From Candidatus Omnitrophota bacterium (GTDB taxonomy: Bacteria; Omnitrophota; Gorgyraeia; 2-01-FULL-45-10): a DNA stretch of 64,000 nt. The stretch lies in NCBI GenBank assembly GCA_041650935.1, contig JBAZKH010000008.1, positions 8,825 to 72,824 of the forward strand. Direction: 5' to 3'. Position 1 is the first letter of the stretch, and every line of letters starts with the position of its first letter. This document shows, one piece after another, positions 2,975-49,195 of this stretch. A program made the translations under genes and the position numbers. The notes beneath the pieces were generated by a model. It was not told the DNA's origin. It searched no databases and saw only the letters and a list, made by a program, of their open reading frames with translations.

Positions 2975-4249
2975 CTAAGAGTCTTTGGAAAAGGTCTGTT
3001 TCCTGTCGCATCCGACCGAAATAAGTACTATCCTGGTCTTCAGCTCGCCCTGCATCCGCTTAAGGTAATTCCGCGCGTTCCTGGGCAGTTTCAGGTACGA
3101 GGTAACTTTTGTCGTATCCGCTTTCCAGCCCGGCAGTTCTTCGTATACGGGCTCGCATCCGGCCAGCACCCTGCTATTCGTCGGGAAATCCGTATACGTC
3201 CTGCCCTCGAACCTGTATGCCGTACATATCCTGATAGAATCGAGATCGTCTAATACGTCTAATTTTGTAACCACTATCTCATCGATACCGTTGACCATTA
3301 TAGAATGCCTTACGATCACGCTGTCGAAATGGCCGCACCGCCGCGGCCTGCCCGTCGTAGCGCCAAACTCCTTGCCTTTCTGCCGTATACGCTCCATCAG
3401 GTCCTTGCCAAACTCGGTGGGAAACGGCCCTTCGCCGACCCTTGTCGTATAAGCCTTCACAACCCCTATGACCTTGCCTATAGCGGTAGGCCCGACACCT
3501 GTCCCGGTGGAAGCGCCGCCGGCCGTAGAATTCGAGGATGTAACAAAGGGATATGTGCCGTGATCGACGTCGAGAAGCGTGCCCTGCGCGCCCTCGAATA
3601 ATATTTTTTTGCGCCGCTTTATGGCATCGTTAAGGACGACGGTCGTATTACACACGTATTTTTTTATCGCTTTGGCATAGGCGCGATACTCGCTATACAA
3701 TTCATCGAAAGAGTATCCCCCGACACCGTATATCTTATCAAATATGGCATTCTTCTCATCCAGATTTGCCGTCAATTTTTCCTTTAATACGGCATCGTCG
3801 AGCAAGTCCGCTACCCTTATGCCGGAACGCGCCACCTTATCGGCATAGCACGGGCCTATGCCTTTCTTGGTAGTGCCTATCTTTTTGCGCTTCGCTTCCT
3901 TAAGCTCGTCGAGCCGTTTATGGTACGGGAATATGACGTGGGCATTTTCGCTTACGAGTAATCTGCCGTCGACATCTATGCCGCGCTTCTTGAGTACATC
4001 GATCTCGTCGAGAAGCGCCTTGGGGTCGACCACAACACCGTTAGCTATTACGCATATCTTATGTTTGTGCAGTATTCCGGAAGGAATGAGATGAAGTATG
4101 AATTCGTCGTCATCGATCACAACCGTGTGGCCGGCATTGTTACCGCCCTGGTACCTTACAACATAGTCGACCTTCCGGGTAAATATGTCTATAACTTTAC
4201 CCTTGCCTTCATCACCCCACTGCGCACCCAGGATTACCAGATTTGCCAT
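2975..4249 (-). CDS. purA: adenylosuccinate synthetase
   Basis: The true start is MANLVILGAQWGDEGKGK, the PurA P-loop. The Arg-rich 40-aa N-terminal extension in the track ORF is spurious. Confidence 0.9.
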   Translation of the reverse strand: MANLVILGAQWGDEGKGKVIDIFTRKVDYVVRYQGGNNAGHTVVIDDDEFILHLIPSGILHKHKICVIANGVVVDPKALLDEIDVLKKRGIDVDGRLLVSENAHVIFPYHKRLDELKEAKRKKIGTTKKGIGPCYADKVARSGIRVADLLDDAVLKEKLTANLDEKNAIFDKIYGVGGYSFDELYSEYRAYAKAIKKYVCNTTVVLNDAIKRRKKILFEGAQGTLLDVDHGTYPFVTSSNSTAGGASTGTGVGPTAIGKVIGVVKAYTTRVGEGPFPTEFGKDLMERIRQKGKEFGATTGRPRRCGHFDSVIVRHSIMVNGIDEIVVTKLDVLDDLDSIRICTAYRFEGRTYTDFPTNSRVLAGCEPVYEELPGWKADTTKVTSYLKLPRNARNYLKRMQGELKTRIVLISVGCDRKQTFSKDS

Positions 4250-4259
4250 ACTTTTCATC

Positions 4260-4790
4260 CTATTTTTTCGGAGGCACCGGAGGCGCCTTCGGCGGCTGTG
4301 CCGGAACAGCAGGTGGCTGCGACGGGATAGTAACGGCGGGCGGTAACGCAGGCGGCGCGGGCGGTACATTCACCGCGGCAGCCTGCCGGGAAATCTGCTC
4401 GGCCCGTCTTATGTTCTCCAATTGCTTATTAAGTTTCTCCGTCCTTATACGCACCGCTTCAGTGCCGACTCTGGAAAATAACTTTGCCAACGCTTCCGCG
4501 TCCAGGTCTTCAAGCCTCTTACCGTTATAGGTATAAATTACATTACCTGCTGCGTCGGTCTCTTTCTTAAGTCCCTGAACGAAATTAATAATTTCGCCGG
4601 CTCGGTCCAAATTTTTCTTAATGCGCCCGAGCAACTCTTCTTTCGTCAATTCCGCCCGCGTTTGAGGTTTCCGGGCCGGTGTCTTATCCGCTGCGTCAGG
4701 TTTGACGGGTTCGGCAGAAAACAAATTCGCCGCCGCTAAGGCCGCGGCTATCATTACTCCCAAGACTATACTATTTTTTATTCCATTCAT
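4260..4790 (-). CDS. secreted hypothetical protein with a coiled-coil and a proline-rich C-terminal tail
   Basis: It has a signal-peptide-like start (MNGIKNSIVLGVMIAAALAAANLFSA) and a PPAPPALPPAV...PPKAPPVPPKK tail. No family was recognised. Confidence 0.5.
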   Translation of the reverse strand: MNGIKNSIVLGVMIAAALAAANLFSAEPVKPDAADKTPARKPQTRAELTKEELLGRIKKNLDRAGEIINFVQGLKKETDAAGNVIYTYNGKRLEDLDAEALAKLFSRVGTEAVRIRTEKLNKQLENIRRAEQISRQAAAVNVPPAPPALPPAVTIPSQPPAVPAQPPKAPPVPPKK

Positions 4791-4832
4791 CTCTACCTTA
4801 CGAACAACTAACAACGCACAACGAGCAGCGAA

Positions 4833-6071
4833 CTACGGCGCCATCGTAAATATCCTACGAGCTATCTCAGGATACTTAGCGATGAACCGCAGTTCATCCT
4901 CGGTAAGAGGCTGCTGCGTGTGGACATTTGCGTACCTGACCAGTTCGAGTATCTTTGCGGCATCCTTTTCGTTCTTAAACTTCACTTCGAGCTTATCGTA
5001 AACGTTCCTGAAACCCTTTATGCCGCTATATTCGCCCGCTGTAATCTGCCTGCCGGTATCGATTATCTCCGGTTCGCCCCTGCCAAGCTCCTCGAAATCG
5101 TAGAGCTCGTAGTTGCGCCTGTCTTTAAGGGCTCCGTCGGCGTGTATACCGGATTCGTGCGCAAACGCGTTAGCGCCTACGCCCGGCTGGTTTACCGGGA
5201 TCGGCACACCAAAAGCGTAAGAGGCGTATTTGGCGATCTTCCAGGCATGCGAAAGCTTCACTCTCTCGTCCAGCACATATTTCCCGCCGAACCCGCTGGA
5301 ATATTTAACCGCAAGTATGACGCTCACCAGGTCCGCGTTACCCGCACGTTCGCCCATGCCGTTCACGGTCGTATTTATGTAGGCATCCACACCCGCATCT
5401 ATGGCGGCTTTGGCACCCGCAACGGAGCATGCCACAACCATGCCCAGGTCGTTATGACAATGCAGTTCTATGGGCAACCTCACCTCTTCGGCCAATATCT
5501 TGACGCGCGCGTATATCGTGAAAGGATCGTCGTATCCCAGCGTGTCGCAGTATCTTACCCTCTCTGCACCGGCCTTCTTCGCTGCTCTCGAGAATTTTAT
5601 GAGATAATCGAGATGCGTCCTCGACGCGTCTTCGGCGTTCACGCCGACATATTTTACGCCGAGTTTCCTGGCCGTACGCACCGCCTCGACCATCTCTTTT
5701 ATAACGTCTTCTTTTGTATACTTACCCTGGAACTTGCCGTTTATCATCTGGTCCGATGTTGAAATAGAGAGATTAAGGTTTTCGATCTTTGTCATCTTAC
5801 AGGCCTTTTCAACATCATCTTTGATGGCCCTTATCCAGCCGCTGAGCATGATGGGCTTGAGAACTCCCATTTTTGCCAGCTCAAGGTTGGCGTTCAGGTA
5901 ATTTGTCTCGTGACGGGTCACAGGGAAACCGAATTCGGACTGTGCTACACCCATATCGTTCAGATACATGTTTATCATCGTCTTCTGGAGCTTTGCCAGA
6001 CCGAGTCTCGATGTCTGGACACCGTCTCTATTGGTAACGTCGACTATATAAATCTTATTTTGCTTTGCCAC
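4833..6071 (-). CDS. DRE-TIM metallolyase, LeuA/NifV family (short homocitrate/citramalate/2-isopropylmalate synthase-like paralogue)
   Basis: It carries an HCHNDLG metal-binding motif and an RDGVQ N-terminal motif. At 412 aa it lacks the LeuA C-terminal regulatory domain. Confidence 0.7.
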   Translation of the reverse strand: MAKQNKIYIVDVTNRDGVQTSRLGLAKLQKTMINMYLNDMGVAQSEFGFPVTRHETNYLNANLELAKMGVLKPIMLSGWIRAIKDDVEKACKMTKIENLNLSISTSDQMINGKFQGKYTKEDVIKEMVEAVRTARKLGVKYVGVNAEDASRTHLDYLIKFSRAAKKAGAERVRYCDTLGYDDPFTIYARVKILAEEVRLPIELHCHNDLGMVVACSVAGAKAAIDAGVDAYINTTVNGMGERAGNADLVSVILAVKYSSGFGGKYVLDERVKLSHAWKIAKYASYAFGVPIPVNQPGVGANAFAHESGIHADGALKDRRNYELYDFEELGRGEPEIIDTGRQITAGEYSGIKGFRNVYDKLEVKFKNEKDAAKILELVRYANVHTQQPLTEDELRFIAKYPEIARRIFTMAP

Positions 6072-6094
6072 CTGCGCACCTTCTTTCCGATCTG

Positions 6095-6150
6095 TAAAAT
6101 TTGAATTTCGTATTTGTTTAGAATTTCGATATTCGTATTTCGGGTTTAAA
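6095..6150. repeat. family 2 half-element, copy F4 (reverse orientation)
   Basis: Its reverse complement reads CTTTAAACCCGAAATACGAATATCGAAATTCTAAACAAATACGAAATTCAAATTTTAC. Confidence 0.7.
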
Positions 6151-7732
6151 GTTTTACCAATTTTAACTCGTATATGTTCTTCGACCCTCTTATCTCATCC
6201 AAAACCTTCTTCGGAACATTACTATCCACATTCCAAACACTTATGGCTTTACCGCCCTTCTCTTCGCGGCCGAACGATACGCTCGCCACGTTTATCTTAT
6301 TCTCGCCTAAGATGGTACCTATGTGGCCTATTATACCGGGCACATCCTTATTGAAGACGATGAGCATCGTCCCCTCGGGAACGCAGTCCACATAAAACTC
6401 GTCGATCTTCACGATACGCGGATCGACCTTTGTGAAGAGCGTCCCGCATAAGGAGCTCTTCATCTTGTCGGTCTCGACCTCGATCACTATAAGGCTGGCA
6501 AAATCCTGCAGTTCAGCCCTCTTCGAATCTATAACGGTTATACCGCGCTCTTTTGCCAGCACCATAGAATTCACGAAGTTTACCGTATCCTGCAGTATGG
6601 GCTTAAGCATGCCTTTTATTATCGTCGCGGTAAAAGGCGACAGGTCGTACTTCAAAAGGTCTCCCACGTACGTTATCTTAACCTTCTTTATATGCCCGTC
6701 GACAAGCTGCGCCTGGATAGCGCCCATATTTTCGGCCAGACGCAGATATGGTTCAAGGACCTTATACATTTCGGGATCGACGCACGGGACGTTAACCGCG
6801 TTCTTCACTCCACAGCCGAGGAGCGCGTCACGCACCGTATTCGCCACGTCTATTGCCACATTCATCTGCGCCTCTTCCGTAGAAGCACCGAGATGCGGGG
6901 TCAACACCACTTTCTCGAGCTTCGCCAGCTTTGAGTTCGTAGGCGGTTCCTCCTCGAATACGTCCAGCGCGGCGCCGGCCACCTTACCGGACTCTATGGC
7001 CCTGACAAGCGCCTCTTCATCTATTATACCGCCCCTCGCACAGTTGACGACCCTGACATTCCGCTTCATGACGGCGAATTCTTTATCCGATATTATATGC
7101 CTAGTCTCTTCCGTAAGAGGCGTATGGACCGTTATGTAGTCGGCATTTTTGTATATCGTCTTGAGGTCGACCAGCTCTATGCCAAGCTCCTTGGCCCTAT
7201 CGGCCGAGAGGAACGGATCATAAGCCAGCACCTTCATCCCGAAAGTAATGGCGCGCTTCGCTACCTCCGTGCCTATCCTGCCCAGACCCACTATGCCGAG
7301 CGTCTTGCCGTAGAGTTCCACGCCCATGAACTTTTTGCGCTCCCATTCGCCCCGCTTCACGGAAAGATCGGCCTGTGGTATATTACGGGAGAGGGCAAGT
7401 ATCATGGAAAAAGTATGCTCCGCCGTCGAAATAGTATTACCCGCGGGCGTATTGACGACGATTATCCCCTTCTTAGAGGCCGCCGCAACATCGACGTTGT
7501 CCAAACCGACCCCGGCCCTTCCTATTATTTTAAGCCTGGCGGCGGCGCCTATGACATCCTTGGTCACCTTGGTGGCGCTGCGCACCAGCAGGGCATCGTA
7601 ATCCTTGATCACCCGCTTAAGCTCTTCGGGCGTAAGTTTCGTATTAACGTCTACTTTGAATTCTTTCTCTTTCTCCAGTATTTCGACCGCTTCTTTCGAG
7701 AGCGAATCGCTGATCAAGACTTTGAATGACAT
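6146..7732 (-). CDS. serA: D-3-phosphoglycerate dehydrogenase
   Basis: The 528-aa protein has a 2-hydroxyacid dehydrogenase Rossmann motif (GLGRIG) and C-terminal ASB and ACT domains. Confidence 0.9.
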   Translation of the reverse strand: MSFKVLISDSLSKEAVEILEKEKEFKVDVNTKLTPEELKRVIKDYDALLVRSATKVTKDVIGAAARLKIIGRAGVGLDNVDVAAASKKGIIVVNTPAGNTISTAEHTFSMILALSRNIPQADLSVKRGEWERKKFMGVELYGKTLGIVGLGRIGTEVAKRAITFGMKVLAYDPFLSADRAKELGIELVDLKTIYKNADYITVHTPLTEETRHIISDKEFAVMKRNVRVVNCARGGIIDEEALVRAIESGKVAGAALDVFEEEPPTNSKLAKLEKVVLTPHLGASTEEAQMNVAIDVANTVRDALLGCGVKNAVNVPCVDPEMYKVLEPYLRLAENMGAIQAQLVDGHIKKVKITYVGDLLKYDLSPFTATIIKGMLKPILQDTVNFVNSMVLAKERGITVIDSKRAELQDFASLIVIEVETDKMKSSLCGTLFTKVDPRIVKIDEFYVDCVPEGTMLIVFNKDVPGIIGHIGTILGENKINVASVSFGREEKGGKAISVWNVDSNVPKKVLDEIRGSKNIYELKLVKL

Positions 7733-7752
7733 TACGCTATCTCCTTGCTTTC

Positions 7753-7881
7753 TTTAAATCCGAAATCCGAATATCGAAATTCTAAACAAATAAGAAATTC
7801 AAATTTTACAATTTTGAAACACTGGAGCTTGAAAAATTAGGATTTGTTTCGAATTTCGGATTTCGCGCTTCGGATTTATCC
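7753..7881. repeat. AT-rich palindromic intergenic element, family 2, copy F1
   Basis: The left half reads TTTAAATCCGAAATCCGAATATCGAAATTCTAAACAAATAAGAAATTCAAATTTTACAATTTTGAAA, and the inverted right half ends ...GATTTGTTTCGAATTTCGGATTT...CGGATTTATCC. Confidence 0.75.
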
Positions 7882-7886
7882 TTTTC

Positions 7887-9014
7887 TTATTGTAATATTT
7901 TTTCGGCCGCGGCCACACCCTTACCTGCACTGAACTTATATCCCAATTTCACGAGCGCCTGTTCCAGCGCCTTTATAGATTCGATCGTATGTTCCCTGTC
8001 TATTCCGCCCATGTGAGCAGCCCTGAATATCTTGCCCTTCAGGGTATCCTGTCCGCCGGCGAATGTAACGCCGAACTCCGTCTTCAGGAGCTTTATGATA
8101 TCGTCGGCGTTTATCCCCTCGGGGGCATTTATGCCGGTTACTGCGGCGGACGGGTGCCTGGAAAATACCGTAAGCCCCATCGTCTTACAAGCCTGGCGAA
8201 ATGCTTCCGACTGATTCACGTGCCGGGCGATGACCTTATCTATTCCCTCGGCATTGATCGTCTCCACCGCTTTCTTCAACCCGATGACCAAAGTTATCGC
8301 GGAAGTGAACGGCGTATCCGTATTGAGATAAGACTTCTGATATTTTTTGAAGTTAAAATAGAATTTCGGGAGCCGCGACGTTTCGACGGCTTTCCACGCC
8401 TTCTGGCTGACCGAACAGAACGACAGTCCCGGCGGTATCATCAGGCCCTTCTGCGAGCCGCAGACTGCTATATCGACTCCCCAGGCGTCGTTCTCGAAAT
8501 TATCAGCACCGAGACCGCTTATCACGTCGACGACAAATAATGCATCCGCCTTATTCACCACCCGGCCTATCGCCTTAATGTCGTATACTGTAGCGGTTGA
8601 TGTTTCGCAAAGCGTGGTATATACGCCCTTAACGCCGGGATTCTTCTTTAATAGTTCTTCGATCGTCTCCGGCTTCGGCGCGTCCCCCCATTCGACATCG
8701 AGCGCAATAACCTCGACTCCGTATGCCTTGGCGATGTCGCCGAACCTTTCGCCGAACTTACCGCCGCGCACCACTATTATCTTATCGCCGGCCGAGAGGC
8801 AGTTCACAATCGACGCTTCCATCGCCCCCGTCCCGCTCGAAGTAAACGTAAATAGATCCCCCGACGTTTTAAATATTTTCTTCAGGCCCTCGGTCGCGTC
8901 TTTGAATATGGCCTGATACTCTTTAGTCCGATGGTGTATCATCGGCCTGGCCATTTCGTTTCTTATCTCCTCGGGCACCGGCGTCGGTCCCGGCGTCATC
9001 AGATATTTCTTCAT
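7887..9014 (-). CDS. class V aminotransferase, probably phosphoserine aminotransferase of the AGXT-like type
   Basis: It has the class-V fold and a PLP-lysine region (SQKGLM). It lies adjacent to serA. The start is probably MKKYLMTPGPT. Confidence 0.8.
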   Translation of the reverse strand: MKKYLMTPGPTPVPEEIRNEMARPMIHHRTKEYQAIFKDATEGLKKIFKTSGDLFTFTSSGTGAMEASIVNCLSAGDKIIVVRGGKFGERFGDIAKAYGVEVIALDVEWGDAPKPETIEELLKKNPGVKGVYTTLCETSTATVYDIKAIGRVVNKADALFVVDVISGLGADNFENDAWGVDIAVCGSQKGLMIPPGLSFCSVSQKAWKAVETSRLPKFYFNFKKYQKSYLNTDTPFTSAITLVIGLKKAVETINAEGIDKVIARHVNQSEAFRQACKTMGLTVFSRHPSAAVTGINAPEGINADDIIKLLKTEFGVTFAGGQDTLKGKIFRAAHMGGIDREHTIESIKALEQALVKLGYKFSAGKGVAAAEKILQ

Positions 9015-9090
9015 GCTCAACCCCTTGTTAGTCACCAGTTACCAGTTGCCGGTTACCAGCCCACGTAAGCGCTGGCTGCTGGCAACCGAC

Positions 9091-9687: not shown

Positions 9688-9834
9688 GGGAACCTCCTTT
9701 TTAAATGCCAAAGCTCAAATGTCAAATAAATCTCAAATTTTCAAATATTAACTATCCAAACTGATGTTTCGAGATTTGATATTTTGATTTTGAATTTCAT
9801 TTGTCATTTGGATTTTGTCATTTGTCATTACTAT

Positions 9835-25030: not shown

Positions 25031-26101
25031 TTACCTCCCTAAAATTTTCGCGGCCGCCGCAAGCACCTCATCGACCGTTACCGCCTCGAGACACTGAAAA
25101 CCTTTCGCGCAGTCATGCGCGAGACATTCTATGCAGCCGACATCCTTATGGAGCACCACATCGCGCTTGCCTGTCGGCCCCCAGCGCTGCGGCGAAAGCC
25201 CTCTGTCGTGCCTGCCGAATATCGCGATCACAGGCGTACCGACGGCGCACGCTATATGGACCGGTCCGGAATCGTTCGATATGAATAGCCGCGCGCGCCT
25301 CAATACGCTTGCCACATCCGCAACGCTCGTCCTGCCCGCGAGGTTCAGACAATTTTTCTTTAAGCGATTCGATACTCTATCGCCCAGTTCTTTATCCGCG
25401 GCGGAGGCTACAACTATTATCTTTACGCCGTATCGCTCGATCAAGGCCTGCGCGGCCCTGGCAAACTTATCGGGGCTCCACCTCTTCGAAGGGCAGCTGG
25501 CGCCGGGGTTTATTGCCACACAAAGATCGTCTTTACCGATACCCCCCTCGCGCAGCATCTCATCCACCCTCACTTCGGAATGGCCGTTCACGGGCATATA
25601 AAGAGGCTTATCTTTCGGTTCCAGGCCTGTATACCGCAATATATCGAGGGTATAATCGATCTCGTGCTTTAAGCCGTATTGCTTGGTATGCGGCAGGCGG
25701 GTGGTGAGCAAAAACCCCCATTTCCTGTTATACCCTACCGTCTCTGGGATCCCGGCCAGTGAAACCAGAAGGTGCGTCCTCTTCGTCGGGTGCAGGATAA
25801 GGGCTATGTCGAATTTTTTACGGCGTAACGAGCGGATGAAACCCAAATTTCTCAACAGCCCCTTCTCCCGCCCGTTCTTATCGTAGACTATGATTTCATC
25901 GAGGTAAGGATTGCCTTCCAGTATATCCTTGGCATATCTCCTCACCATAAAAGCGATATAGCCATCGGGGCAGACGTCGCGGACAGCCTTGATCACGGGA
26001 GTCGAGAGCAAGACATCCCCTATCCTGTCGAGCCTCACGATCAACACCCGCTTCCCTTCATGCCTTTGGATTTTGGATTTTGGATTTTGGATTTTATTCA
26101 T
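25031..26101 (-). CDS. ADP-heptose:LPS heptosyltransferase (GT9)
   Basis: It has the GT9 N-terminus (RVLIVRLDRIGDVLL) and C-terminal motifs. An alternative GTG start at about 26047 would place the GGATTTT x4 repeat in the 5' UTR. Confidence 0.8.
   Translation of the reverse strand: MNKIQNPKSKIQRHEGKRVLIVRLDRIGDVLLSTPVIKAVRDVCPDGYIAFMVRRYAKDILEGNPYLDEIIVYDKNGREKGLLRNLGFIRSLRRKKFDIALILHPTKRTHLLVSLAGIPETVGYNRKWGFLLTTRLPHTKQYGLKHEIDYTLDILRYTGLEPKDKPLYMPVNGHSEVRVDEMLREGGIGKDDLCVAINPGASCPSKRWSPDKFARAAQALIERYGVKIIVVASAADKELGDRVSNRLKKNCLNLAGRTSVADVASVLRRARLFISNDSGPVHIACAVGTPVIAIFGRHDRGLSPQRWGPTGKRDVVLHKDVGCIECLAHDCAKGFQCLEAVTVDEVLAAAAKILGR
26068..26095. repeat. heptanucleotide tandem repeat (GGATTTT) of 4 units at the 5' end of a GT9 gene
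   Basis: The sequence ggatttt x4 encodes codons 2 to 11 (KIQNPKSKIQ) if the gene starts at ATG 26101. With a GTG start at 26047 it lies in the 5' leader. Confidence 0.8.
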
Positions 26102-32070: not shown

Positions 32071-32201
32071 AAGTCATTCCGCAATAAATTTTTCGCCGTC
32101 AGTCCGGCGCTTTTTCCGGCGGCCTGCAATTGATATGTTTAAGATTTTATGTCCCGCCTTTTATTTCCCGTTTCCCTGGCCAAATTTTTCGAAAACTCAG
32201 G

Positions 32202-32335
32202 AATATTATTTGGCGATGTGGCGAGCTTAGGCGTAAAAATTGCGAGGCAGCGTCCGAGCAATTTTTCTCGAGCGTAAATTTTACATGGTTAAAATTTACG
32301 CGTCCTAAGCTCACCACATCGCCAAATAATATTAG
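32202..32335. repeat. structured intergenic element with terminal inverted repeats, family 1, copy A (complete)
   Basis: It has terminal inverted repeats (GAATATTATTTGGCGATGTGGCGAGC and GCTCACCACATCGCCAAATAATATT) and two internal hairpins, AAAAATTGC[GAGGCAGCGTCCGA]GCAATTTTT and GCGTAAATTTTA[CATGGT]TAAAATTTACGC. Confidence 0.8.
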
Positions 32336-34301: not shown

Positions 34302-35307
34302 CCAGCTGCTCCTTCCCTGAAATAATATCCATTTCTATGACAAGCGTCATCACGGGATAGTCCCCAAAAGATAACGACATCCTGCGTAATTTGACTTCGT
34401 CCTTCTCGGTCGTAAGGATAAAATCGAACGATCTCTCATCGCATCTCTTCACGATAGGTCCGGTATCGGCCTGGCTGTAATTATAGTGATCGGCGAAGAC
34501 GATCTCTTCGGCGATGTCGGCGCCCAGGCGGCGGGCAGTATCGCTAAAGTAGCCCGGATCGCCTATACTCGACAAAAGAATTACGCGCTTACCCTTAAGA
34601 AAGTTTAAAGCGAGCTCCTTCCGCGCCTTCAGGTCGTAGAGACAGACGGGCTTGTGAAGCGCTTCGAGAAAGACGAGTGCGCCATTCAGTCTCTTTAACT
34701 CATCCTTCACCTGCACCAGCGCCGGACCCGGCTTATCGACTTTTGTAAAGACTATTACCGATGCGCGCTTTACGGCCTCCACAGGCTCCCTCAATATGCC
34801 CCGAGGGAAGAGCCGGCCGTTGCCGAACGGGTTGCGGGAATCGACCAGAATTATATCGAGATTGCGCTCGAGCTCCCAGTGCTGGAAACCGTCATCCAGC
34901 ACCGCGGTATCGCTGCCATAAAGCTTTATCGCCTTGTGCGCCGACTTCGTACGGTCTTCGCCGACAAGGATGGGCGTATCGGCAAGTTTGCGCCTGAGAA
35001 GAGTCTGTTCGTCCCAGCCGTAACCGCGGATAAGAACGCTCGCCTTCTTGCCAAGCTCCTCGTCGAGCAGCTTCACCAGCCGTATCACAAATGGTGTCTT
35101 GCCGGTACCGCCCAGAGTCAGGTTCCCGACGGATATTATCTTAAGCGGCACCCGGACGGATTTGAATATATGCGTCTTGTAAGCCAACCGCCGCAGTATA
35201 AGAGCAGCCCCGTACGCAAACGACAGGATGTAGAGAAAGAATTTTATAGGCGCATATATAGCGTCGTCACGCCTATCGGTCATCAATGAATATATGAATT
35301 CACGCAT
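34261..35307 (-). CDS. lpxK: tetraacyldisaccharide 4'-kinase
   Basis: It has the LpxK P-loop (ISVGNLTLGGTGKTP). The start is probably MREFIYSLM, 2 nt after the waaA stop. Confidence 0.85.
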   Translation of the reverse strand: MREFIYSLMTDRRDDAIYAPIKFFLYILSFAYGAALILRRLAYKTHIFKSVRVPLKIISVGNLTLGGTGKTPFVIRLVKLLDEELGKKASVLIRGYGWDEQTLLRRKLADTPILVGEDRTKSAHKAIKLYGSDTAVLDDGFQHWELERNLDIILVDSRNPFGNGRLFPRGILREPVEAVKRASVIVFTKVDKPGPALVQVKDELKRLNGALVFLEALHKPVCLYDLKARKELALNFLKGKRVILLSSIGDPGYFSDTARRLGADIAEEIVFADHYNYSQADTGPIVKRCDERSFDFILTTEKDEVKLRRMSLSFGDYPVMTLVIEMDIISGKEQLVDRLRSLYSRKGA

Positions 35308-36577
35308 TGAGGAATACCGCCATTTCGCCCAAGACCCGTCCCGTAGCGCCCATATTGTCGACGACAACCTGTTTGGCGGCTCTGCCCATCTCAAGGCGCC
35401 GCTTTTCATCCGTCAGCAGGTTGTAGAGGGCGGGTACCAGGTCATCACCGCTATCGACCTGCGCGGCCGCGGATGAGGCCAGAAAGGCCTCGGCTATATC
35501 CTTAAAATTGAACATATGCTGGCCGAATATTACGGGCTTCTCATGGACAGCAGGCTCTATCGGGTTCTGTCCGCCGTGTTTTATAAGGCTGCCTCCGACG
35601 AAGACTATGGTCGCTATAGAATAGAAGTCTCCCAGGCGGCCGATGGTGTCGAGAATGTAGATCCGTCGTTCGTCGTTCGTCGTTCGTCGTTCGTCGGAGC
35701 CGGATAACCGGACCGGCTGGAAGCCGAGTTTCTTTGCGGCCTCGGCGACCTCGCCCGCTCTTTCGATATGGCGGGGAGCGATCAGCAGTTTAAGCTTCGG
35801 GAAATCTTCGATTAAATCTTTATATGCAGCGATAACGGCGCATTCTTCGCCCGGATGCGTCGACCCTGCCACTATAAGCTCGTCTCCCGTAGCCATCCCC
35901 AGCTCTTTTTTTAATACGTCGCCGCTTATCCTGCCCGCCTTGACCCGGATATCGAATTTCATATTCCCGGCGACCTTTACTCTTTCGGGCCTGGCGCCAA
36001 GAGCTATTATCCTGTCCGCGTCCATCTTCGACTGCATGCAAAGAACGTTAATGTTCCGCAATATCTTCCTTAAGAACCGGCTTACCATCTCGTACTTCCC
36101 AAAAGACCTGTCCGATATCCTGCCGTTGATGAGTATGGCCGGTATGGCGCGGCGTTCTATCTCTTTTAAAAAATTAGGCCATATCTCAGTCTCGACCATG
36201 ATGTACATATTAGGCCTCACTATACCTATAACTTTCTTCACTATAAATGAAAAATCGAGCGGAAAATATATCACAACGGCATCATCCGCAAATAACTTCT
36301 TTGCCAGGTCGCCGCCCGTCTTAGTTATCGTCGAAAAAACTATCGGCCGCGAGGGGAACTTCTCGCGCATAAGCGGGATAAGGCTCCTGCATAACGCAAC
36401 CTCCCCTACGCTCACCGCCTGAATCCATATCGCGCCGCGCGCCTTCGCAAGCGCCGCGCGCTTCGCCCTGCCGTATACGCCGAACCGCTCGAGAAAATCC
36501 CTGTGCAGTTTGCCTTTGAATATCAGCGTCGGTAGATAGAAGATCGAGAATAACGCGAATCCTATGTCGTACAACAT
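35300..36577 (-). CDS. waaA: 3-deoxy-D-manno-octulosonic acid transferase
   Basis: The 425-aa protein is of the KdtA family (GT30). It contains the GTCGTTC heptamer repeat. Confidence 0.85.
   Translation of the reverse strand: MLYDIGFALFSIFYLPTLIFKGKLHRDFLERFGVYGRAKRAALAKARGAIWIQAVSVGEVALCRSLIPLMREKFPSRPIVFSTITKTGGDLAKKLFADDAVVIYFPLDFSFIVKKVIGIVRPNMYIMVETEIWPNFLKEIERRAIPAILINGRISDRSFGKYEMVSRFLRKILRNINVLCMQSKMDADRIIALGARPERVKVAGNMKFDIRVKAGRISGDVLKKELGMATGDELIVAGSTHPGEECAVIAAYKDLIEDFPKLKLLIAPRHIERAGEVAEAAKKLGFQPVRLSGSDERRTTNDERRIYILDTIGRLGDFYSIATIVFVGGSLIKHGGQNPIEPAVHEKPVIFGQHMFNFKDIAEAFLASSAAAQVDSGDDLVPALYNLLTDEKRRLEMGRAAKQVVVDNMGATGRVLGEMAVFLNA
35665..35696. repeat. heptanucleotide tandem repeat (GTCGTTC) of about 4.6 units inside the waaA coding sequence
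   Basis: The sequence is gtcgttc gtcgttc gtcgttc gtcgttc gtcg. In the reading frame it encodes DERRTTNDERR. Confidence 0.85.
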
Positions 36578-37555: not shown

Positions 37556-37610
37556 ATTTTACGAACGCTTTCCACTCTTGTTTTCCCAGTAAAATTTTTC
37601 GCATCCGTTG

Positions 37611-37742
37611 AAATGTGATGTGGCGATGTGGTGAGCAGGGCGTTAAAAGTTCGAGGCAGCGTACGAGAACTTTTATCGAGCGAAATTTTCACATGGCTGA
37701 AAATTTCGCGTCCTAAGCGAGCCACATTGACACAGCACATTT
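37611..37742. repeat. structured intergenic element, family 1, copy B
   Basis: It has the same architecture as copy A, with hairpins TAAAAGTTC[GAGGCAGCGTACGA]GAACTTTTA and GCGAAATTTTCA[CATGGC]TGAAAATTTCGC, and compensatory stem changes relative to copy A. Confidence 0.8.
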
Positions 37743-41632: not shown

Positions 41633-41700
41633 CGAGCGCAATTTTCACATGGCTGAAAATTACGCATCCCTGCGAGATGCCAACCCCGAGAGGGGATTCC
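41633..41700. repeat. family 1 partial copy D plus an adjacent GC-rich hairpin
   Basis: The partial copy reads GCGCAATTTTCACATGGCTGAAAATTACGC and is followed by CCCCGAGAGGGGATTCCCCTCGGG. Confidence 0.6.
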
Positions 41701-42035: not shown

Positions 42036-42111
42036 ATATAGCCTTTCCGCAATTTCAAATTTCAAATACTGCAAATACTACCAGGGAAGGTTGGGATTTG
42101 GAATTTTGAAT

Positions 42112-42624
42112 TTATTTGTCATTACACTTCGCTATCTTTATTATCTCTTCGACAGCCTGCCGCGCCGTAAGTTTGCCCGTGTCTATAGAATGATCTGCTT
42201 TTGCATATAGAGGCGCCCTTTTAGCAAGGAGCGTCCGTATCTTCAGCTTCGGATCCTCGACGTTAAGGAGCGGCCTGTGCTTATATTTCTTCGTCCGCGC
42301 CATTATCGCTTCTTCATCGGCCGTGAGGCATATAACGATACCGCCGGACTTCAAGCTCTCCATATTCTCCGGCCTTATAACCACCCCTCCGCCCGTATCG
42401 ATTACGAGGTTATCCTGGACGGAAAGATCGCGCACAACCGCGCTTTCGACATCGCGGAAATAATCTTCACCCTCTTTGGTAAATATCTCATTTATCGTCC
42501 GCCGTTCCCTCTTTTCGATAAGGTCATCGATCGAGACGTAGCGAAGCCCGAGCTCATTTGCGATCTTTATCGCGATCGTCGTCTTGCCCGTGCCCATAAA
42601 ACCGATCAGAACAATGTTACGCAT
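42112..42624 (-). CDS. aroK: shikimate kinase
   Basis: It has the motif MRNIVLIGFMGTGKTT. Confidence 0.85.
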   Translation of the reverse strand: MRNIVLIGFMGTGKTTIAIKIANELGLRYVSIDDLIEKRERRTINEIFTKEGEDYFRDVESAVVRDLSVQDNLVIDTGGGVVIRPENMESLKSGGIVICLTADEEAIMARTKKYKHRPLLNVEDPKLKIRTLLAKRAPLYAKADHSIDTGKLTARQAVEEIIKIAKCNDK

Positions 42625-43932: not shown

Positions 43933-44709
43933 TCAAAACAATCCTCCAAACAAAAGACTTATAATCTTATTTCCGAAAAATATCGAAACCAAAGCCGCCG
44001 CCGAAAGGAACGGGCCGTAAGGAATGATCTCCGCGCCTTTTCTCAATTTTAAGATTATGCCGGGCACTGCGCCCAGGAAAGGCGCAATGAAGAATGTCAA
44101 AATGACCAGCTTCAACCCTATAAAAGAACCGATCATAGCCATCAGCTTGACGTCCCCGCCGCCCATCGCCTCTTTTTTGAATGCCGCCTTTCCTATCGCT
44201 CCCATAAAGTATATACTCCCTGCCCCGGCGAGCGCACCCGCAGCCGAGCCTATTATGGCGCGGGAGCGCATCGTCTCATTGAGGATAGACGGAAAGATAA
44301 AAGCGAGTAAAAACCCCGCCGCGAGCCCGCCAAGCGATATCTCGTCGGGTATCTCCTGTATCTCGAAATCGACAAAGGTCGCGACTATCAGGCCGCAGGT
44401 CATTATAGAGTATGTAAAAAATTTCGGTGTAATACAGAACTTTAAAAAGAGCGCTGTAAGCACAAGGGCCGTCAACGCCTCGACTACCGGATACCTTAAC
44501 CGTATCCGCGCTTTACACGACCTGCATTTGCCGCCCAGCGCGGCGTAGCTAAAAACAGGGATATTGTCATACCAGGCGATGGCCTTCTTGCACTTCGGAC
44601 AATGGGACGCGGGAACGACTATGGATTCCCCTTTAGGCATCCTGTAGATGCATACGTTAAGGAAACTGCCGAGAACCAGTCCGAACAGAAAAACCGCCAT
44701 TACTGCCAT
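43933..44709 (-). CDS. prepilin (type IV leader) peptidase, A24 family
   Basis: It has an N-terminal C4 zinc site (CPKC...CRSC) and multiple TM segments with the A24 architecture. Confidence 0.8.
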   Translation of the reverse strand: MAVMAVFLFGLVLGSFLNVCIYRMPKGESIVVPASHCPKCKKAIAWYDNIPVFSYAALGGKCRSCKARIRLRYPVVEALTALVLTALFLKFCITPKFFTYSIMTCGLIVATFVDFEIQEIPDEISLGGLAAGFLLAFIFPSILNETMRSRAIIGSAAGALAGAGSIYFMGAIGKAAFKKEAMGGGDVKLMAMIGSFIGLKLVILTFFIAPFLGAVPGIILKLRKGAEIIPYGPFLSAAALVSIFFGNKIISLLFGGLF

Positions 44710-44714
44710 AGATT

Positions 44715-44807
44715 ATTAAATCCGAAATTCGAATATCGAAATTCTAAACAAATACGAAATCCTAAATTCCAATTTGGAAAATTCAGATTTCGCGATTCGG
44801 ATTTATC
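44715..44807. repeat. family 2, copy F2
   Basis: It reads TTAAATCCGAAATTCGAATATCGAAATTCTAAACAAATACGAAATCCTAAATTCCAATTTGGAAAATTCAGATTTCGCGATTCGGATTTATCC. Confidence 0.75.
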
Positions 44808-44821
44808 CTCCCTTTTCCAGT

Positions 44822-44848
44822 TTGTAGGGCAGGTTTAAACCTGCCCTA
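44822..44848. repeat. GTAG-N6-TTTAAA-N6-CTAC palindrome P2, overlapping the aroE stop codon
   Basis: The sequence GTAGGGCAGGTTTAAACCTGCCCTAC is a perfect palindrome. Confidence 0.65.
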
Positions 44849-45709
44849 CTGCTGCGCACTACTCTTTAGCGCCTCTTTCAGCGCCTTCTTCATTACGCTC
44901 ACAGGTGAGCGCGCGCCCGTCCATATCTCAAAAGCCATCGCGCCCTGGTATAAGAGCATACCCATACCTGTCACTGCGTGGAGTTTAAGCGCGGACGCCG
45001 CCCTCACAAGCTCCGTCCACGGCCTGTTATAGACGCAATCGTAAATATATAGCCCGTAATGCAGGAGCGCCGGGTCGACAGGCGATGGATCGCCCTGCTT
45101 CATCCCTATCGGCGTAGCGTTTATTAAAAGCTCGGATCCCTTTAAAGCGCTTTTGAAATCCCCGGTATGGATTACCGCGAGCCGCTTATCATCAAAGTAC
45201 TTCTTGTAGTGCTCTTTCAAATCATCCGTCTTTGCGGTATCGATATCGAAAACGGATATCCTCCTCGGTGAATTGCCCAGATACATTATAACCGCCCTGG
45301 CGGCGCCGCCCGCGCCCAGGACGAAGATATTCTTTCCTTCAGGCTCGAACTTCATGTCCTCTACAAGGGAACGGTAGAAGCCGGGTCCGTCCGTATTGTA
45401 CCCGCAGAGCAAGCCGTCCTCGGCAAATTTTATAGTGTTGACCGCGCCGAGGCGCCGCGCATTCTCATCAATGGTGCCTTTACGCTCCAGAAGCTCCTTA
45501 GCTTTTATCTTGTGCGGGATCGTAACGTTAAGGCCGGAGATATTATTGGCCCTGGCGTTCTTCAAAAAGTCATCCAGCTTTCCGGGCTCGACGTCGTATA
45601 GAAGATATTCCGCATCGATGCCAAGCGCGGAGAAAGCCGCATTTTGCATCGCGGGTGAAAGCGAATGCTTCACTGGATGGCCGATAAGTCCGTATTTAAG
45701 TCTTGCCAT
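44846..45709 (-). CDS. aroE: shikimate dehydrogenase
   Basis: It has the AroE fold motifs (GAGGAARA). Confidence 0.85.
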   Translation of the reverse strand: MARLKYGLIGHPVKHSLSPAMQNAAFSALGIDAEYLLYDVEPGKLDDFLKNARANNISGLNVTIPHKIKAKELLERKGTIDENARRLGAVNTIKFAEDGLLCGYNTDGPGFYRSLVEDMKFEPEGKNIFVLGAGGAARAVIMYLGNSPRRISVFDIDTAKTDDLKEHYKKYFDDKRLAVIHTGDFKSALKGSELLINATPIGMKQGDPSPVDPALLHYGLYIYDCVYNRPWTELVRAASALKLHAVTGMGMLLYQGAMAFEIWTGARSPVSVMKKALKEALKSSAQQ

Positions 45710-47272: not shown

Positions 47273-47305
47273 AGTCTCACCTCAAAATAAATTTTTCGCT
47301 GTAAC

Positions 47306-47440
47306 AATAATATGATATGTCAATGTGGTTCGTTCAGGACGCACAATTTTCAGCCATGTGAAAATTGTGCTCCGTAAAAGTTCTCGTACGCTGCCTCGAA
47401 CTTTTAAGGCCTGCGCTCACCACATCGCCATATCACATTC
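47306..47440. repeat. structured intergenic element, family 1, copy C (core inverted)
   Basis: It is the reverse complement of copy B over about 125 bp. Its second hairpin is GCACAATTTTCA[GCCATG]TGAAAATTGTGC. Confidence 0.8.
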
Positions 47441-47457
47441 CTGACTTGTAGAAAAAT

Positions 47458-48450
47458 TTATTTTTCCATCCAAGGCATCATCTTCCTCAAGTCCGAGCCG
47501 ACCTTCTCGATCTGGTGAGCGCACTCTTTGTCCAGTATCGCTTTATAGTTGGGCCTGCCCGCCTCATTCTCCTTGATCCATTCGCGCGCGAACTTACCCG
47601 ACTTTATCTCTTTGAGAATCTTCTGCATCACTTTACGCGTCCTGTCGGTTATTATCTTCTTGCCGCGGGTGATATCGCCGTAACACGCGGTATTCGAAAC
47701 CCTGCATCTCATCCCGCTTATGCCGTACTGCTGGATAAGGTCCGTGATGAGTTTGAGCTCATGCAGCACCTCGAAGTACGCGATCTCCGGCTGGTAACCG
47801 GCCGCGATCAGCGTATCGAATCCCGCCTTGATAAGTTCCGACGCGCCGCCGCAGAGGACCGCCTGTTCGCCGAAAAGATCTGTCTCCGTCTCCTCGTCGA
47901 ATGTCGTCTCGATAACGCCTGCTCTCGTCCCGCCGATGCCTTTGGCATACGCAAGCGCTATATTCCGCGCGTTGCCGGTAGCATCCTGATAGACCGCTAC
48001 CAGGCACGGGACACCTTTACCTTCCTCGTACATCCTGCGCACAAGCGCGCCCGGGCCTTTTGGAGCGACCATGATGACGTCGATCTTCTTCGAAGGTTTA
48101 ATCTGTTTGAATCTTATATTGAACCCGTGCGAAAAGAGGAGCGCCTTGCCCTTCGTCATATTTTCGGCGATCTCGTCCTTGTAGACCTTCGCCTGGACAT
48201 GGTCCTCAGTCAGCACCTGGATAATATCAGCCTGCGCCGAGGCCTCTTTAGCGGAAACAGGGTTAAAGCCGTCCTTCTTCGCCTGCTCATAATTTTTCGT
48301 ACCGGGAAGTTCGCTCACGATAACACTGCACCCCGAGTCGCGTAAATTCAGGCTCTGGCTCCGGCCCTGTATGCCGTATCCGATAACGGCGATCTTTTTG
48401 CCCTTCAACAAATTCAAATCCGCATCCTTTTCATAATAGATCTTTGCCAT
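47458..48450 (-). CDS. ilvC: ketol-acid reductoisomerase
   Basis: It has the class I KARI motif (GYGIQG). Confidence 0.9.
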
Positions 48451-48475
48451 TTCTTTTAACCCCTTTCTTTGTTTT

Positions 48476-48580
48476 GACTTTAAATTCGAAACTCTAAATC
48501 CGAAATCCTAAACAAATACCAATTTTCAAAATTCGAATTTGTGATTTGTTTCGAATTTCGATATTTGAATTTCGTGCTTA
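48476..48580. repeat. family 2, copy F3
   Basis: It contains CTAAATCCGAAATCCTAAACAAATACCAATTTTCAAAATTCGAATTTGTGATTTGTTTCGAATTTCGATATTTGAATTTCG. Confidence 0.7.
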
Positions 48581-49093
48581 TTCATTTACTTCCGGTTTTC
48601 CCTCAACCTTCAGTCCTTTATCCTCCGTGCTCATCGCAACCCTGCCGGTCCTCACCACCTCCAATATCCCGAAAGGACGCAGGAGTTCGAGAAGCCCATG
48701 GATCTTTGTCTGGTCGCCTACGACCACGATACTGATCGACTTAGCCCCGGCGTTCTCTATCCCTGCCCCGGCCGATTCTATGGCCTCCAGGACCTCTTTC
48801 CTGTTCTTTGCCGTCACGGAGACCTTTAAAAGAATGAGCTCCCTGTCTATAAATTCGCCGTCCTTGAAATCGACGACCTTTATGACATCGATAAGCTTAT
48901 TGAGCTGTTTCTTTATCTGTTCGAGCGTCCGGTCGTCGCCCTCGACGACTATCGTCATCCTGGAGACGGTCGGATCCTCTGTCTCGCCGACAGCGAGCGA
49001 GCTGATATTGAATCCGCGCGCGCTGAATAGCCCGGATATACGCGCCAGGACGCCGAACTTGTTCTCGACTAAGACTGATATTGTATGCTTCAT
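48578..49093 (-). CDS. ilvN: acetolactate synthase small (regulatory) subunit
   Basis: It has an ACT domain. The start MKHTISVLVENKFGVL is preceded by GAGGG. Confidence 0.85.
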   Translation of the reverse strand: MKHTISVLVENKFGVLARISGLFSARGFNISSLAVGETEDPTVSRMTIVVEGDDRTLEQIKKQLNKLIDVIKVVDFKDGEFIDRELILLKVSVTAKNRKEVLEAIESAGAGIENAGAKSISIVVVGDQTKIHGLLELLRPFGILEVVRTGRVAMSTEDKGLKVEGKPEVNE

Positions 49094-49195
49094 ATCCCTC
49101 GCTAACTGGGTTTTAGGTCTTAGCTCATAGGTCATAGCTCATAGGCGTTGGGAAACGCGGCCCTATGACCTAAGAGCTATGAACTAAGAGCTAAC

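Follow-up and report, generated by a model that had tools for sequence, protein, structure and literature searches.

Gene-less palindromic insertions at operon junctions of a Candidatus Omnitrophota genome, probable relatives of rRNA intervening sequences

Four AT-rich palindromes, here labelled F0, F1, F3 and F4, are found between protein-coding genes of a Candidatus Omnitrophota metagenome-assembled genome (MAG), in a window of 64 kb, which is the whole stretch of DNA analysed. Here it is proposed, with a probability of about 0.8, that they are gene-less copies (three of them complete, the fourth a half) of a selfish element with inverted repeats that belongs to the intervening sequence (IVS) type, located outside rRNA and with arms made of heptamer arrays. 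Going by sequence, the window copies would be non-autonomous derivatives, similar to miniature inverted-repeat transposable elements (MITEs), of a larger IVS-type element that carries a gene. IVSs have been known since 1990, and their origin, their movement and the role of their small protein are still open (PMC4990558, PMC11270868).

The initial annotation had placed four copies of the repeat in the window, one of them a half-element, and an arm profile (nhmmer) run over the 64 kb confirms both their number and their location, with exactly seven arms (E=1.6e-8 to 4.2e-16) and the next best match at E=0.26. The copies are the following:

F1, 7752..7883, unstranded, full palindromic element with arms at 7749-7810 and 7823-7884, between the stop of a serC-like gene (7887) and the start of serA (7732)
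F0, 6092..6156, unstranded, half element consisting of one arm in reverse, located at the junction of serA with the cimA/leuA-like gene
F3, 44709..44814, unstranded, full but shorter palindrome with arms at 44710-44771 and 44759-44811, between aroE and the prepilin peptidase gene
F4, 48474..48587, unstranded, full palindrome and the most diverged copy, with arms at 48474-48535 and 48526-48587, between ilvN and ilvC

The full elements measure 106-132 nt and share with MITEs their small size, the absence of coding sequence, the terminal inverted repeats and the presence of several copies. The GC content of the elements is ~27-35% vs ~51% for the window, so the earlier description of an otherwise GC-rich genome does not hold. 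Identity is 90-91% among F0, the left arm of F1 and the left arm of F3 (F0 matches the F1 arm at 90% over 68 nt) and 72-83% for F4. The 11-mer AAATCCGAAAT, with at most one mismatch, occurs 14 times vs 2.8 expected, a number that none of 100 shuffles reaches. Each copy had also been described as a long AT-rich palindrome able to form a hairpin. This applies to F1, F3 and F4, which are predicted to form long imperfect hairpins of -30 to -40 kcal/mol (z -2.5 to -4.9), with arms that are 77-81% complementary and an extended stem formed from complementary termini, as in IVSs; the values are -35.4 kcal/mol (z=-2.5) for F1, whose arms are 81% complementary over 37 nt, and -30 kcal/mol (z=-4.9) for F4. 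It does not apply to the half copy F0, for which no fold is predicted (z=+0.24).

The arms are AT-rich, ~55-65 nt long, and consist of a degenerate array in which CGAA is repeated four times, every 7 nt, followed by AAACAAAT and then by more 7-nt units. The alignment of arms from the window with arms found elsewhere gives AAAT-CCGAA-nnn-CGAA-nnn-CGAA-AT(C/T)-CGAA-ACAAAT, continued by 7-nt units such as TCAAAAT. The CGAA blocks are nearly invariant, while the three intervening positions are variable, the common triplets being AAT, GCA and TAT. The blocks AAACAAAT and CGAAGCACGAA/CGAATATCGAA recur across phyla outside the pattern that was used for searching.

All four sites are empty in the relatives examined. 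The ser sites were compared in four syntenic relatives, in which SerA is 85-88% identical, and the ilv and aro sites in three (IlvC 87-91% identical), with two genomes common to both sets. The serC-serA gap is 154 nt in the window vs 28, 27, 6 and 7 nt in the four relatives, and the serA-cimA gap is 74 nt vs 15, 18, 37 and 25 nt; similarly, the ilvN-ilvC gap is 127 nt vs 23, 84 and 73 nt in the three relatives, and the aroE-pilD gap is 136 nt vs 10, 16 and 67 nt. The relatives keep the same operons without the element, and the arm profile finds zero family arms over 122,959 nt of their sequence. The junction of F4 is clean when compared with the relative L264, in which TAA is followed directly by ACAAAGAAAGG, where the window has TAA, the element and then AACAAAGAAAGG. 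The empty sites and this clean junction therefore indicate that the copies were inserted. The window copies are lineage-specific insertions between a stop codon and the next ribosome-binding site in otherwise tight operons, and they show the sporadic presence among close relatives that characterizes IVSs.

Every copy lies between two co-directional genes, just past a stop codon, in the apparent operon orders serC-like, F1, serA, F0, cimA/leuA-like; aroE, F3, prepilin peptidase; and ilvN, F4, ilvC. The ribosome-binding site of serA (AAGGAG) is kept between F1 and the ATG, the terminal TTTAAAC of F0 overlaps the serA stop codon (6146-6148), F3 ends 7 nt from the prepilin peptidase ATG, and F4 is located directly after the ilvN stop codon (48578-48580) and ~25 nt ahead of the ilvC ATG. 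The C-terminus of ilvN (...EGKPEVNE*) and its stop codon agree with those of the relatives. An independent assembly of the serA region, the Logan contig SRR8542065_2600817 (1767 bp), ends inside F1 and inside F0; the elements thus act as assembly breakpoints, consistent with many copies in that community.

The same arms are found in many other bacteria. A 17-nt arm pattern is present in at least 49 IMG/VR contigs, about half of them true members and 12 with paired inverted arms, and in at least 120 loci in genomes; the arm profile, which was built from pattern-selected sequences, confirms 117 of the genome loci listed, most of them with a second inverted arm 100-250 nt away. All the genome matches listed are MAGs. 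By record title, those listed include ~44 Planctomycetota (among them Kuenenia), ~31 Desulfobacterota or "delta" and ~21 members of the candidate phyla radiation (CPR)/Patescibacteria, with fewer matches in Nitrospirota, Aminicenantes, Omnitrophica, Verrucomicrobiota, Kiritimatiellia, Victivallales, Binatia, WOR-3, Ignavibacteriae and a few labelled Proteobacteria. The Bacteroidota matches (L116 and L117) and the locus L072 were set aside, having the pattern alone and no confirmation by the profile. Full copies usually fill the spacer up to 0-30 nt from the flanking genes, as delimited by naive open reading frame (ORF) calls, and in a Parcubacteria MAG the full element at 1938-2160 of locus L071 begins 2 nt past the 3' end of a tRNA gene. 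A phage database search with F1 gave no match, and a literature search for the sequence strings of the element returned no relevant paper.

The family is also present inside 23S rRNA. The Saccharibacteria MAG contig CAZUCU010000009.1 (locus L123) has five full elements in 3.5 kb, and Rfam places a large-subunit rRNA gene at 3425-6545; four of the elements are inside this gene and the fifth is just upstream of it. In the alignment to the model, hairpin loops are replaced: an 8-nt loop near model position 165 gives way to 179 nt and a 6-nt loop near model position 285 to 211 nt, and another insertion is found in the helix-25 region near 583. This replacement of loops is the defining behaviour of rRNA intervening sequences. 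Such sequences substitute for the tetraloops of helices 9, 25 and 45, and RNase III excises them (PMC4990558). Excision by RNase III with the ends left unligated is documented in Coxiella, Salmonella and Leptospira (PMC4990558). The 23S rRNA of the Saccharibacteria MAG is probably broken up into several fragments. At IVS sites in CPR rRNA genes, a survey reported many uncharacterised insertions of <200 bp, and it also noted 23S_rRNA_IVP genes without an assigned function (PMC11270868). Some copies (L120, L134, L145 and those in rRNA helices) are found in the loop of an outer GC-rich hairpin, which hints at a preference for hairpin loops.

A full-length form of the element encodes a protein. 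In an Ignavibacteriae MAG (L152) the arms enclose a 143-aa ORF that matches PF05635, "23S rRNA intervening sequence protein" (E=1.2e-12), and in a Gemmataceae MAG (L158) they enclose a 121-aa homologue, located between two co-directional host genes; both proteins also match TIGR02436, "four helix bundle protein", and the PDB entry 2rld. Metagenome loci were then fetched with these two proteins, and family arms are present in 74 of the best 80 of 551 relatives. In 60 of the best 80, one arm is directly upstream and the inverse arm directly downstream of the PF05635 gene; the units have a median length of 489 bp, and their 5' arm extends into the ATG of the gene (...AAACAAATTCAAATG). The full-length unit is ~490 bp long and encodes a four-helix bundle of ~120 aa. 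The family has larger forms with an S23p/PF05635 gene placed after tandem heptamers, as described for IVSs, and the window copies are gene-less. The upstream neighbour of the 60 units is co-directional in 39 of 41 cases and the downstream neighbour in 29 of 35; the gaps that separate them from the unit have medians of 8 and 22 nt. Because the units are co-oriented with host genes, the PF05635 gene appears to rely on host transcription.

Among the pattern-derived loci (at least 169), 2 elements carry the protein (L152 and L158) vs 83 that are paired and gene-less, the window copies not included. The only gene bounded by the arms in the loci listed is PF05635; neither a transposase nor a tyrosine transposase associated with repetitive extragenic palindromes (RAYT) was found between separated arms, and the other genes found between arms are ordinary host genes flanked by separate elements. 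The gene-less copies retain the start-codon region CAAATGAC and the inner part of the 3' arm, as internal deletions would.

The arrangement of PF05635 genes and heptamer arrays extends beyond the CGAA-type arms. In Coxiella, the IVS has 3-4 tandem heptamers GACAGAT right before the start codon of S23p, the first of which is the site of the 5' cut by RNase III (PMC4990558). Plasmids of cultured Nostoc, Anabaena, Planktothrix and Chlorohelix carry distant PF05635 genes, which adjoin genes such as cas1/cas2, drmD/MmeI and fabH/M20 and are bracketed by inverted arrays of ~4 heptamers with lineage-specific units (AATTCAA, AATTCGC, GTAAAAA, AATCCCC/AATCGTA and GAAGGAT). These PF05635 genes are co-directional with their annotated neighbours in 6 of 8 cases; the two exceptions, both at cas1-cas2, point the other way. 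Among 25 diverse PF05635 loci sampled independently from IMG/VR, 19 have an array of period 7 (at least 17 of 21 matches) next to the gene, vs 1 of 50 control stretches at the same level, and another period is preferred in only 1 of the 25; in the loci whose flanks were inspected, the upstream and downstream arrays are mutually inverse. No paper stating a general association of PF05635 with heptamer arrays was found in a literature coverage that is incomplete, and a prior description is possible.

On the Anabaena, Nostoc and Pseudanabaena plasmids (L256, L257 and L260), the four-helix-bundle genes with heptamer arrays are located beside cas1/cas2, two of them between cas2 and cas1 in the opposite orientation. 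The protein family was reportedly once listed as CRISPR-associated, and this placement may explain that listing. The same type of gene is found in defence clusters of the Planktothrix and Chlorohelix plasmids (L262 and L263), where it is flanked by DISARM drmD and an MmeI-type enzyme in one case and by a helicase and an N6 methylase in the other. A broader proposal, which is tentative and rather doubtful, is that PF05635/TIGR02436 proteins are specific partners of 7-nt arrays, each lineage with its own heptamer, and that proteins and arrays together make up a general class of mobile elements, spread across phyla and resident in host transcripts (at rRNA helices, operon junctions and defence clusters), of which the rRNA IVSs are only the subset noticed first. 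If so, this would account for part of the tandem heptamer repeats that are so far unexplained in cyanobacteria and other bacteria, and movement via an RNA intermediate would be conceivable, because the protein family works with a reverse transcriptase in diversity-generating retroelements (DGRs).

In the mechanism proposed for the IVS-type element, the insertion would reside within host transcripts, where its arms would fold back on each other, closing the insertion on itself and leaving the flanking RNA intact. By analogy with the rRNA IVSs of Salmonella, Leptospira and Coxiella, the stem is, with moderate confidence, probably cut by RNase III; within an operon, such a cut would split the polycistronic mRNA at the insertion and separate the upstream and downstream cistrons. 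The protein gene of full-length copies would be transcribed from the host gene, and the gene-less copies of the window were presumably moved in trans. Most likely the copies are passengers, either neutral or mildly disruptive, on which the host does not depend for regulation; those of the window are probably passengers rather than regulators of the serine and branched-chain amino-acid genes.

Several observations weigh against this interpretation. The match between arms is no better within a unit than between units, with 66.0% vs 65.4±0.55% for protein-carrying units and 70.3% within vs 72.3±0.5% between elements for the gene-less ones. The variable positions are thus not under selection for pairing, and interruptions are found in many stems, so that the case for RNase III becomes weaker but does not fall. 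The window copies are outside rRNA genes, whereas the literature consulted describes IVSs within 16S/23S rRNA genes only (PMC4990558). There are zero protein-carrying copies in the window, in its relatives or in the sampled part of the source genome. Mobility is read solely from presence and absence, with no target-site duplication seen by eye and no known mobilising enzyme. Additionally, the phylum assignments hinge on the binning of MAGs, the gene calls in the fetched loci are naive longest-ORF calls, and both large scans give figures for the matches listed only.

No covariation between the arms was found in either protein-carrying or gene-less units, nor does an asymmetry of G-U pairs (222 vs 220) favour either strand for folding. 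The conserved CGAA at 7-nt spacing ensures short paired blocks and looks more like repeated protein contacts; given the missing covariation, conserved blocks of this kind were preferred to the idea of an RNA helix that is paired throughout and selected as such. In 86 gene-less elements (those of the window and L003-L171), the arms of one element resemble each other slightly less than arms of different elements do, both overall and at the variable columns (37.1% vs 42.7±1.3%), which suggests that the two arms differ systematically. An attempt to assign a polarity to gene-less copies by the variants GAAGCNCGAA and GAATATCGAA was abandoned, as they separate 5' from 3' poorly (25 vs 17 and 14 vs 20 of 60).

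The initial annotation had considered a MITE that targets promoter regions, which is the only one of its three candidate roles to survive, though in modified form. The copies are insertions and gene-less derivatives of a larger inverted-repeat element, but promoter targeting is not seen and the larger element carries PF05635, not a transposase. An ordinary MITE would derive by deletion from a conventional insertion sequence and depend for its movement on a transposase, of the DDE or another type, supplied from another locus, with the four-helix-bundle gene as passenger cargo; this is unlikely, even though small size, lack of coding capacity, terminal inverted repeats, several copies and insertion polymorphism are all as expected of one. 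No transposase is present between separated arms in the 169 pattern-derived loci listed, in which PF05635 is the sole arm-bounded gene, and an autonomous parent encoding a transposase is missing, since PF05635/TIGR02436 is without known transposase activity. The arms abut the PF05635 gene directly in the 60 units, with the 5' arm continuing into its ATG. The outer boundaries of 83 full elements, inspected by eye, have no recurrent direct repeat that could be a target-site duplication, and the F4 junction permits 1-3 A residues at most.

It is quite improbable that the copies have been domesticated as RNA elements, in which the inserted hairpin would now serve as an intercistronic processing or stability signal uncoupling genes of amino-acid operons. 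The intercistronic sites in the ser, ilv-leu and aro operons and the long hairpin folds are in line with this possibility, and RNase III cuts equivalent stems in rRNA IVSs (PMC4990558). However, all four sites are empty in relatives, the family is found beside unrelated genes in many phyla, no covariation preserves the pairing, and one of the window copies is a decayed half. Other known RNA signals were not recognized either: a scan for intrinsic terminators finds none in any element, the stems being AU-rich and ending in only three U; Rfam 15 at the gathering threshold gives no match in the window, rRNA included, which agrees with the location of all four copies between protein-coding genes; a relaxed Rfam search on F1 returns only plant microRNA precursor models, far below the cut-off, as for a generic long hairpin; and a tRNA scan of the window finds none. 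An attenuator or a site for an amino-acid regulator (Lrp, CodY or ARG boxes) was rejected because family members adjoin unrelated genes in many phyla.

That the copies serve as a shared promoter or UP element for the downstream gene (serA, the leuA-like gene, prepilin peptidase or ilvC) had also been suggested, and is very unlikely. It had been stated that all copies are 5' of four genes, which is literally true; being upstream of a gene is uninformative in this window because nearly all its genes are on the same (minus) strand and each copy is equally just downstream of a stop codon. The copies are AT-rich and end 7-30 nt ahead of start codons or ribosome-binding sites, and F3 has one weak -35/-10 match (9/12) in the sense of the gene, but this match ends at the ATG itself, F1 has only antisense 9/12 matches and F4 has no gene-sense match. 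Consensus scans thus find no consistent gene-sense sigma-70 promoter or UP features, and in the relatives the same operons have junctions of 6-37 nt without the element. A tally of copy positions relative to genes, of the kind proposed as a check in the initial annotation, also speaks against it when made across the family. Among the matches listed, the 59 full copies whose neighbours are classifiable from naive ORFs comprise 18 between convergent genes, 31 between co-directional and 10 between divergent genes, a spread that does not fit a promoter, and other copies are inside 23S rRNA.

A binding array for a host DNA-binding protein (nucleoid-associated or an amino-acid regulator), with the likeness across phyla due to convergence on a simple repeat, is hardly credible: CGAA is conserved every 7 nt with three free positions between, which resembles protein contacts more than RNA pairing, but AAACAAAT and CGAAGCACGAA/CGAATATCGAA are shared across phyla beyond the search pattern, and a host regulator explains neither the insertions, nor the occurrence in rRNA, nor the tie to one gene family.

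Two further classes were discarded. Repetitive extragenic palindromic (REP) sequences and bacterial interspersed mosaic elements (BIMEs) with a RAYT do not fit, as the arms here are AT-rich, ~55-65 nt long and made of 7-nt units, vs REPs of 20-40 nt that contain GC, and the flanked gene is PF05635, not a Y1 transposase. For integron attC sites, no GTTRRRY core is apparent in the arm consensus by inspection (no dedicated attC search was made), and the flanking genes are housekeeping genes in conserved synteny.

The IVS reading is best seen against the systems that the family resembles. Similarly to the 23S IVS of Coxiella and Leptospira with S23p/PF05635 (PMC4990558), the family has complementary ends, a long stem and a loop that can hold a four-helix-bundle gene. 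Like the Coxiella type, it also has tandem 7-nt repeats right before the start codon, is AT-richer than the host, is sporadic and co-oriented with the host transcript, and replaces a hairpin loop. The window copies differ from the Coxiella type in being gene-less and located between protein genes, and in their unit, CGAAATN vs GACAGAT; excision by RNase III, demonstrated in Coxiella, would apply to them by extension from published work on IVSs. The IVSs of the Salmonella type in helices 25 and 45, as well as the CPR insertions of <200 bp (PMC11270868), are, going by their description, similar to the window copies in their size of ~100-200 nt, lack of a gene, extended hairpin and patchy distribution, and unlike them are defined by their location in rRNA.

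Among MITEs, the Correia/NEMIS elements of Neisseria and ERIC of enterobacteria are, like the window copies, palindromic and non-coding, of ~100-150 bp, in transcribed intergenic regions and present or absent among relatives. Correia elements within transcripts are RNase III substrates. Each of these families is confined to one lineage, and Correia duplicates a TA target and is derived from a transposase-encoding element, whereas the family studied here has 7-nt arrays, is present in many phyla and has a full form with PF05635 and no transposase. The short tandemly repeated repetitive (STRR) sequences of cyanobacteria and the TAACTGA repeats of Beggiatoaceae (PMC4679880) are also intergenic 7-nt arrays that often end just before start codons. 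They are described as direct arrays without a linked protein, and no link to PF05635 was found in the literature searched; yet the cyanobacterial PF05635 genes are bracketed by such arrays. With Avd, the accessory protein of DGRs, only the fold is shared. Avd is a PF05635-like pentamer of four-helix bundles that works with nucleic acid and a reverse transcriptase (PMC10053308), and in contrast no reverse transcriptase, template repeat or variable repeat is found beside the elements studied.

These observations suggest that the rRNA cases make up a small, visible portion of a far larger family, one that colonises the spacers of ordinary genes in many phyla, mostly in gene-less form, and whose signature is a pair of inverted 7-nt arrays around a four-helix-bundle gene. 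They would give a concrete partner to an abundant protein family of unknown function that is related to Avd, and a possible explanation for some enigmatic heptamer repeats. In practical terms, the elements break metagenome assemblies, inflate intergenic regions and can pass for regulatory sequences.

The host genes next to the four copies were assigned by Pfam, all on the minus strand, as are almost all genes in the 64 kb:

4833..6071, minus strand, HMGL-like (cimA/leuA-like) gene, downstream of F0
6146..7732, minus strand, serA (D-3-phosphoglycerate dehydrogenase), flanked by F1 and F0
7887..9035, minus strand, class-V aminotransferase (serC-like), upstream of F1 in the transcript
43933..44709, minus strand, prepilin peptidase (A24), downstream of F3
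44846..45709, minus strand, aroE (shikimate dehydrogenase), upstream of F3
47458..48450, minus strand, ilvC (ketol-acid reductoisomerase), downstream of F4
48578..49135, minus strand, ilvN (acetolactate synthase small subunit), upstream of F4

The SerA of the window is 100% identical to a protein from a Candidatus Omnitrophota MAG. A GC-rich hairpin, GGGCAGGTTTAAACCTGCCC, at 44822-44845 overlaps the stop codon of aroE (44846), is located 16 nt from F3 and has no U tract.

The window has further repeats of 7-nt units, which the initial annotation had not listed. An AT-rich (24% GC) palindrome at 9712-9834, made of the units AATGACA, AAATCCA and TCAAAAT and their inverse, fills the tig-clpP junction, which is 147 nt long in the window vs 12-36 nt in four relatives. 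The palindrome is similar to the inner portion of a family arm but has no CGAAAT units, and is probably a sister subfamily. Two small palindromes at 42051-42123 and 1991-2042, each just past a stop codon, are 81% complementary to each other, have units of the AAATTCA/AAATCCC type and are possibly further members of the same class. The gene strand also has a near-perfect (AATCCAA)x4 at 26062-26097; it follows a stop codon immediately, with 4 nt left to the next ATG, and has the appearance of a lone 5' arm.

Repeats of an unrelated family, in which an inner hairpin GAGCGAAATTTTCACATGGCTGAAAATTTCGCG is enclosed by inverted repeats of the CCACATCGCC type, are present at 32182-32333, 37592-37741, 41633-41669 and 47289-47459. 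One copy of this family fills the ilvC-leuA junction (185 nt vs 10-68 nt in relatives) and looks like an insertion as well. Additionally, 22 copies of a unit of ~29-34 nt (CCCGGAATCTTACCCGGCAAGGGCATG) are clustered at 53885-61045 in an ORF of 3694 aa (52910-63994), where they presumably correspond to a repeated protein module, and the period-7 run (TCGTCGT)x4-5 at 35661-35698, in a minus-strand ORF (35300-36577), is probably a coding repeat.

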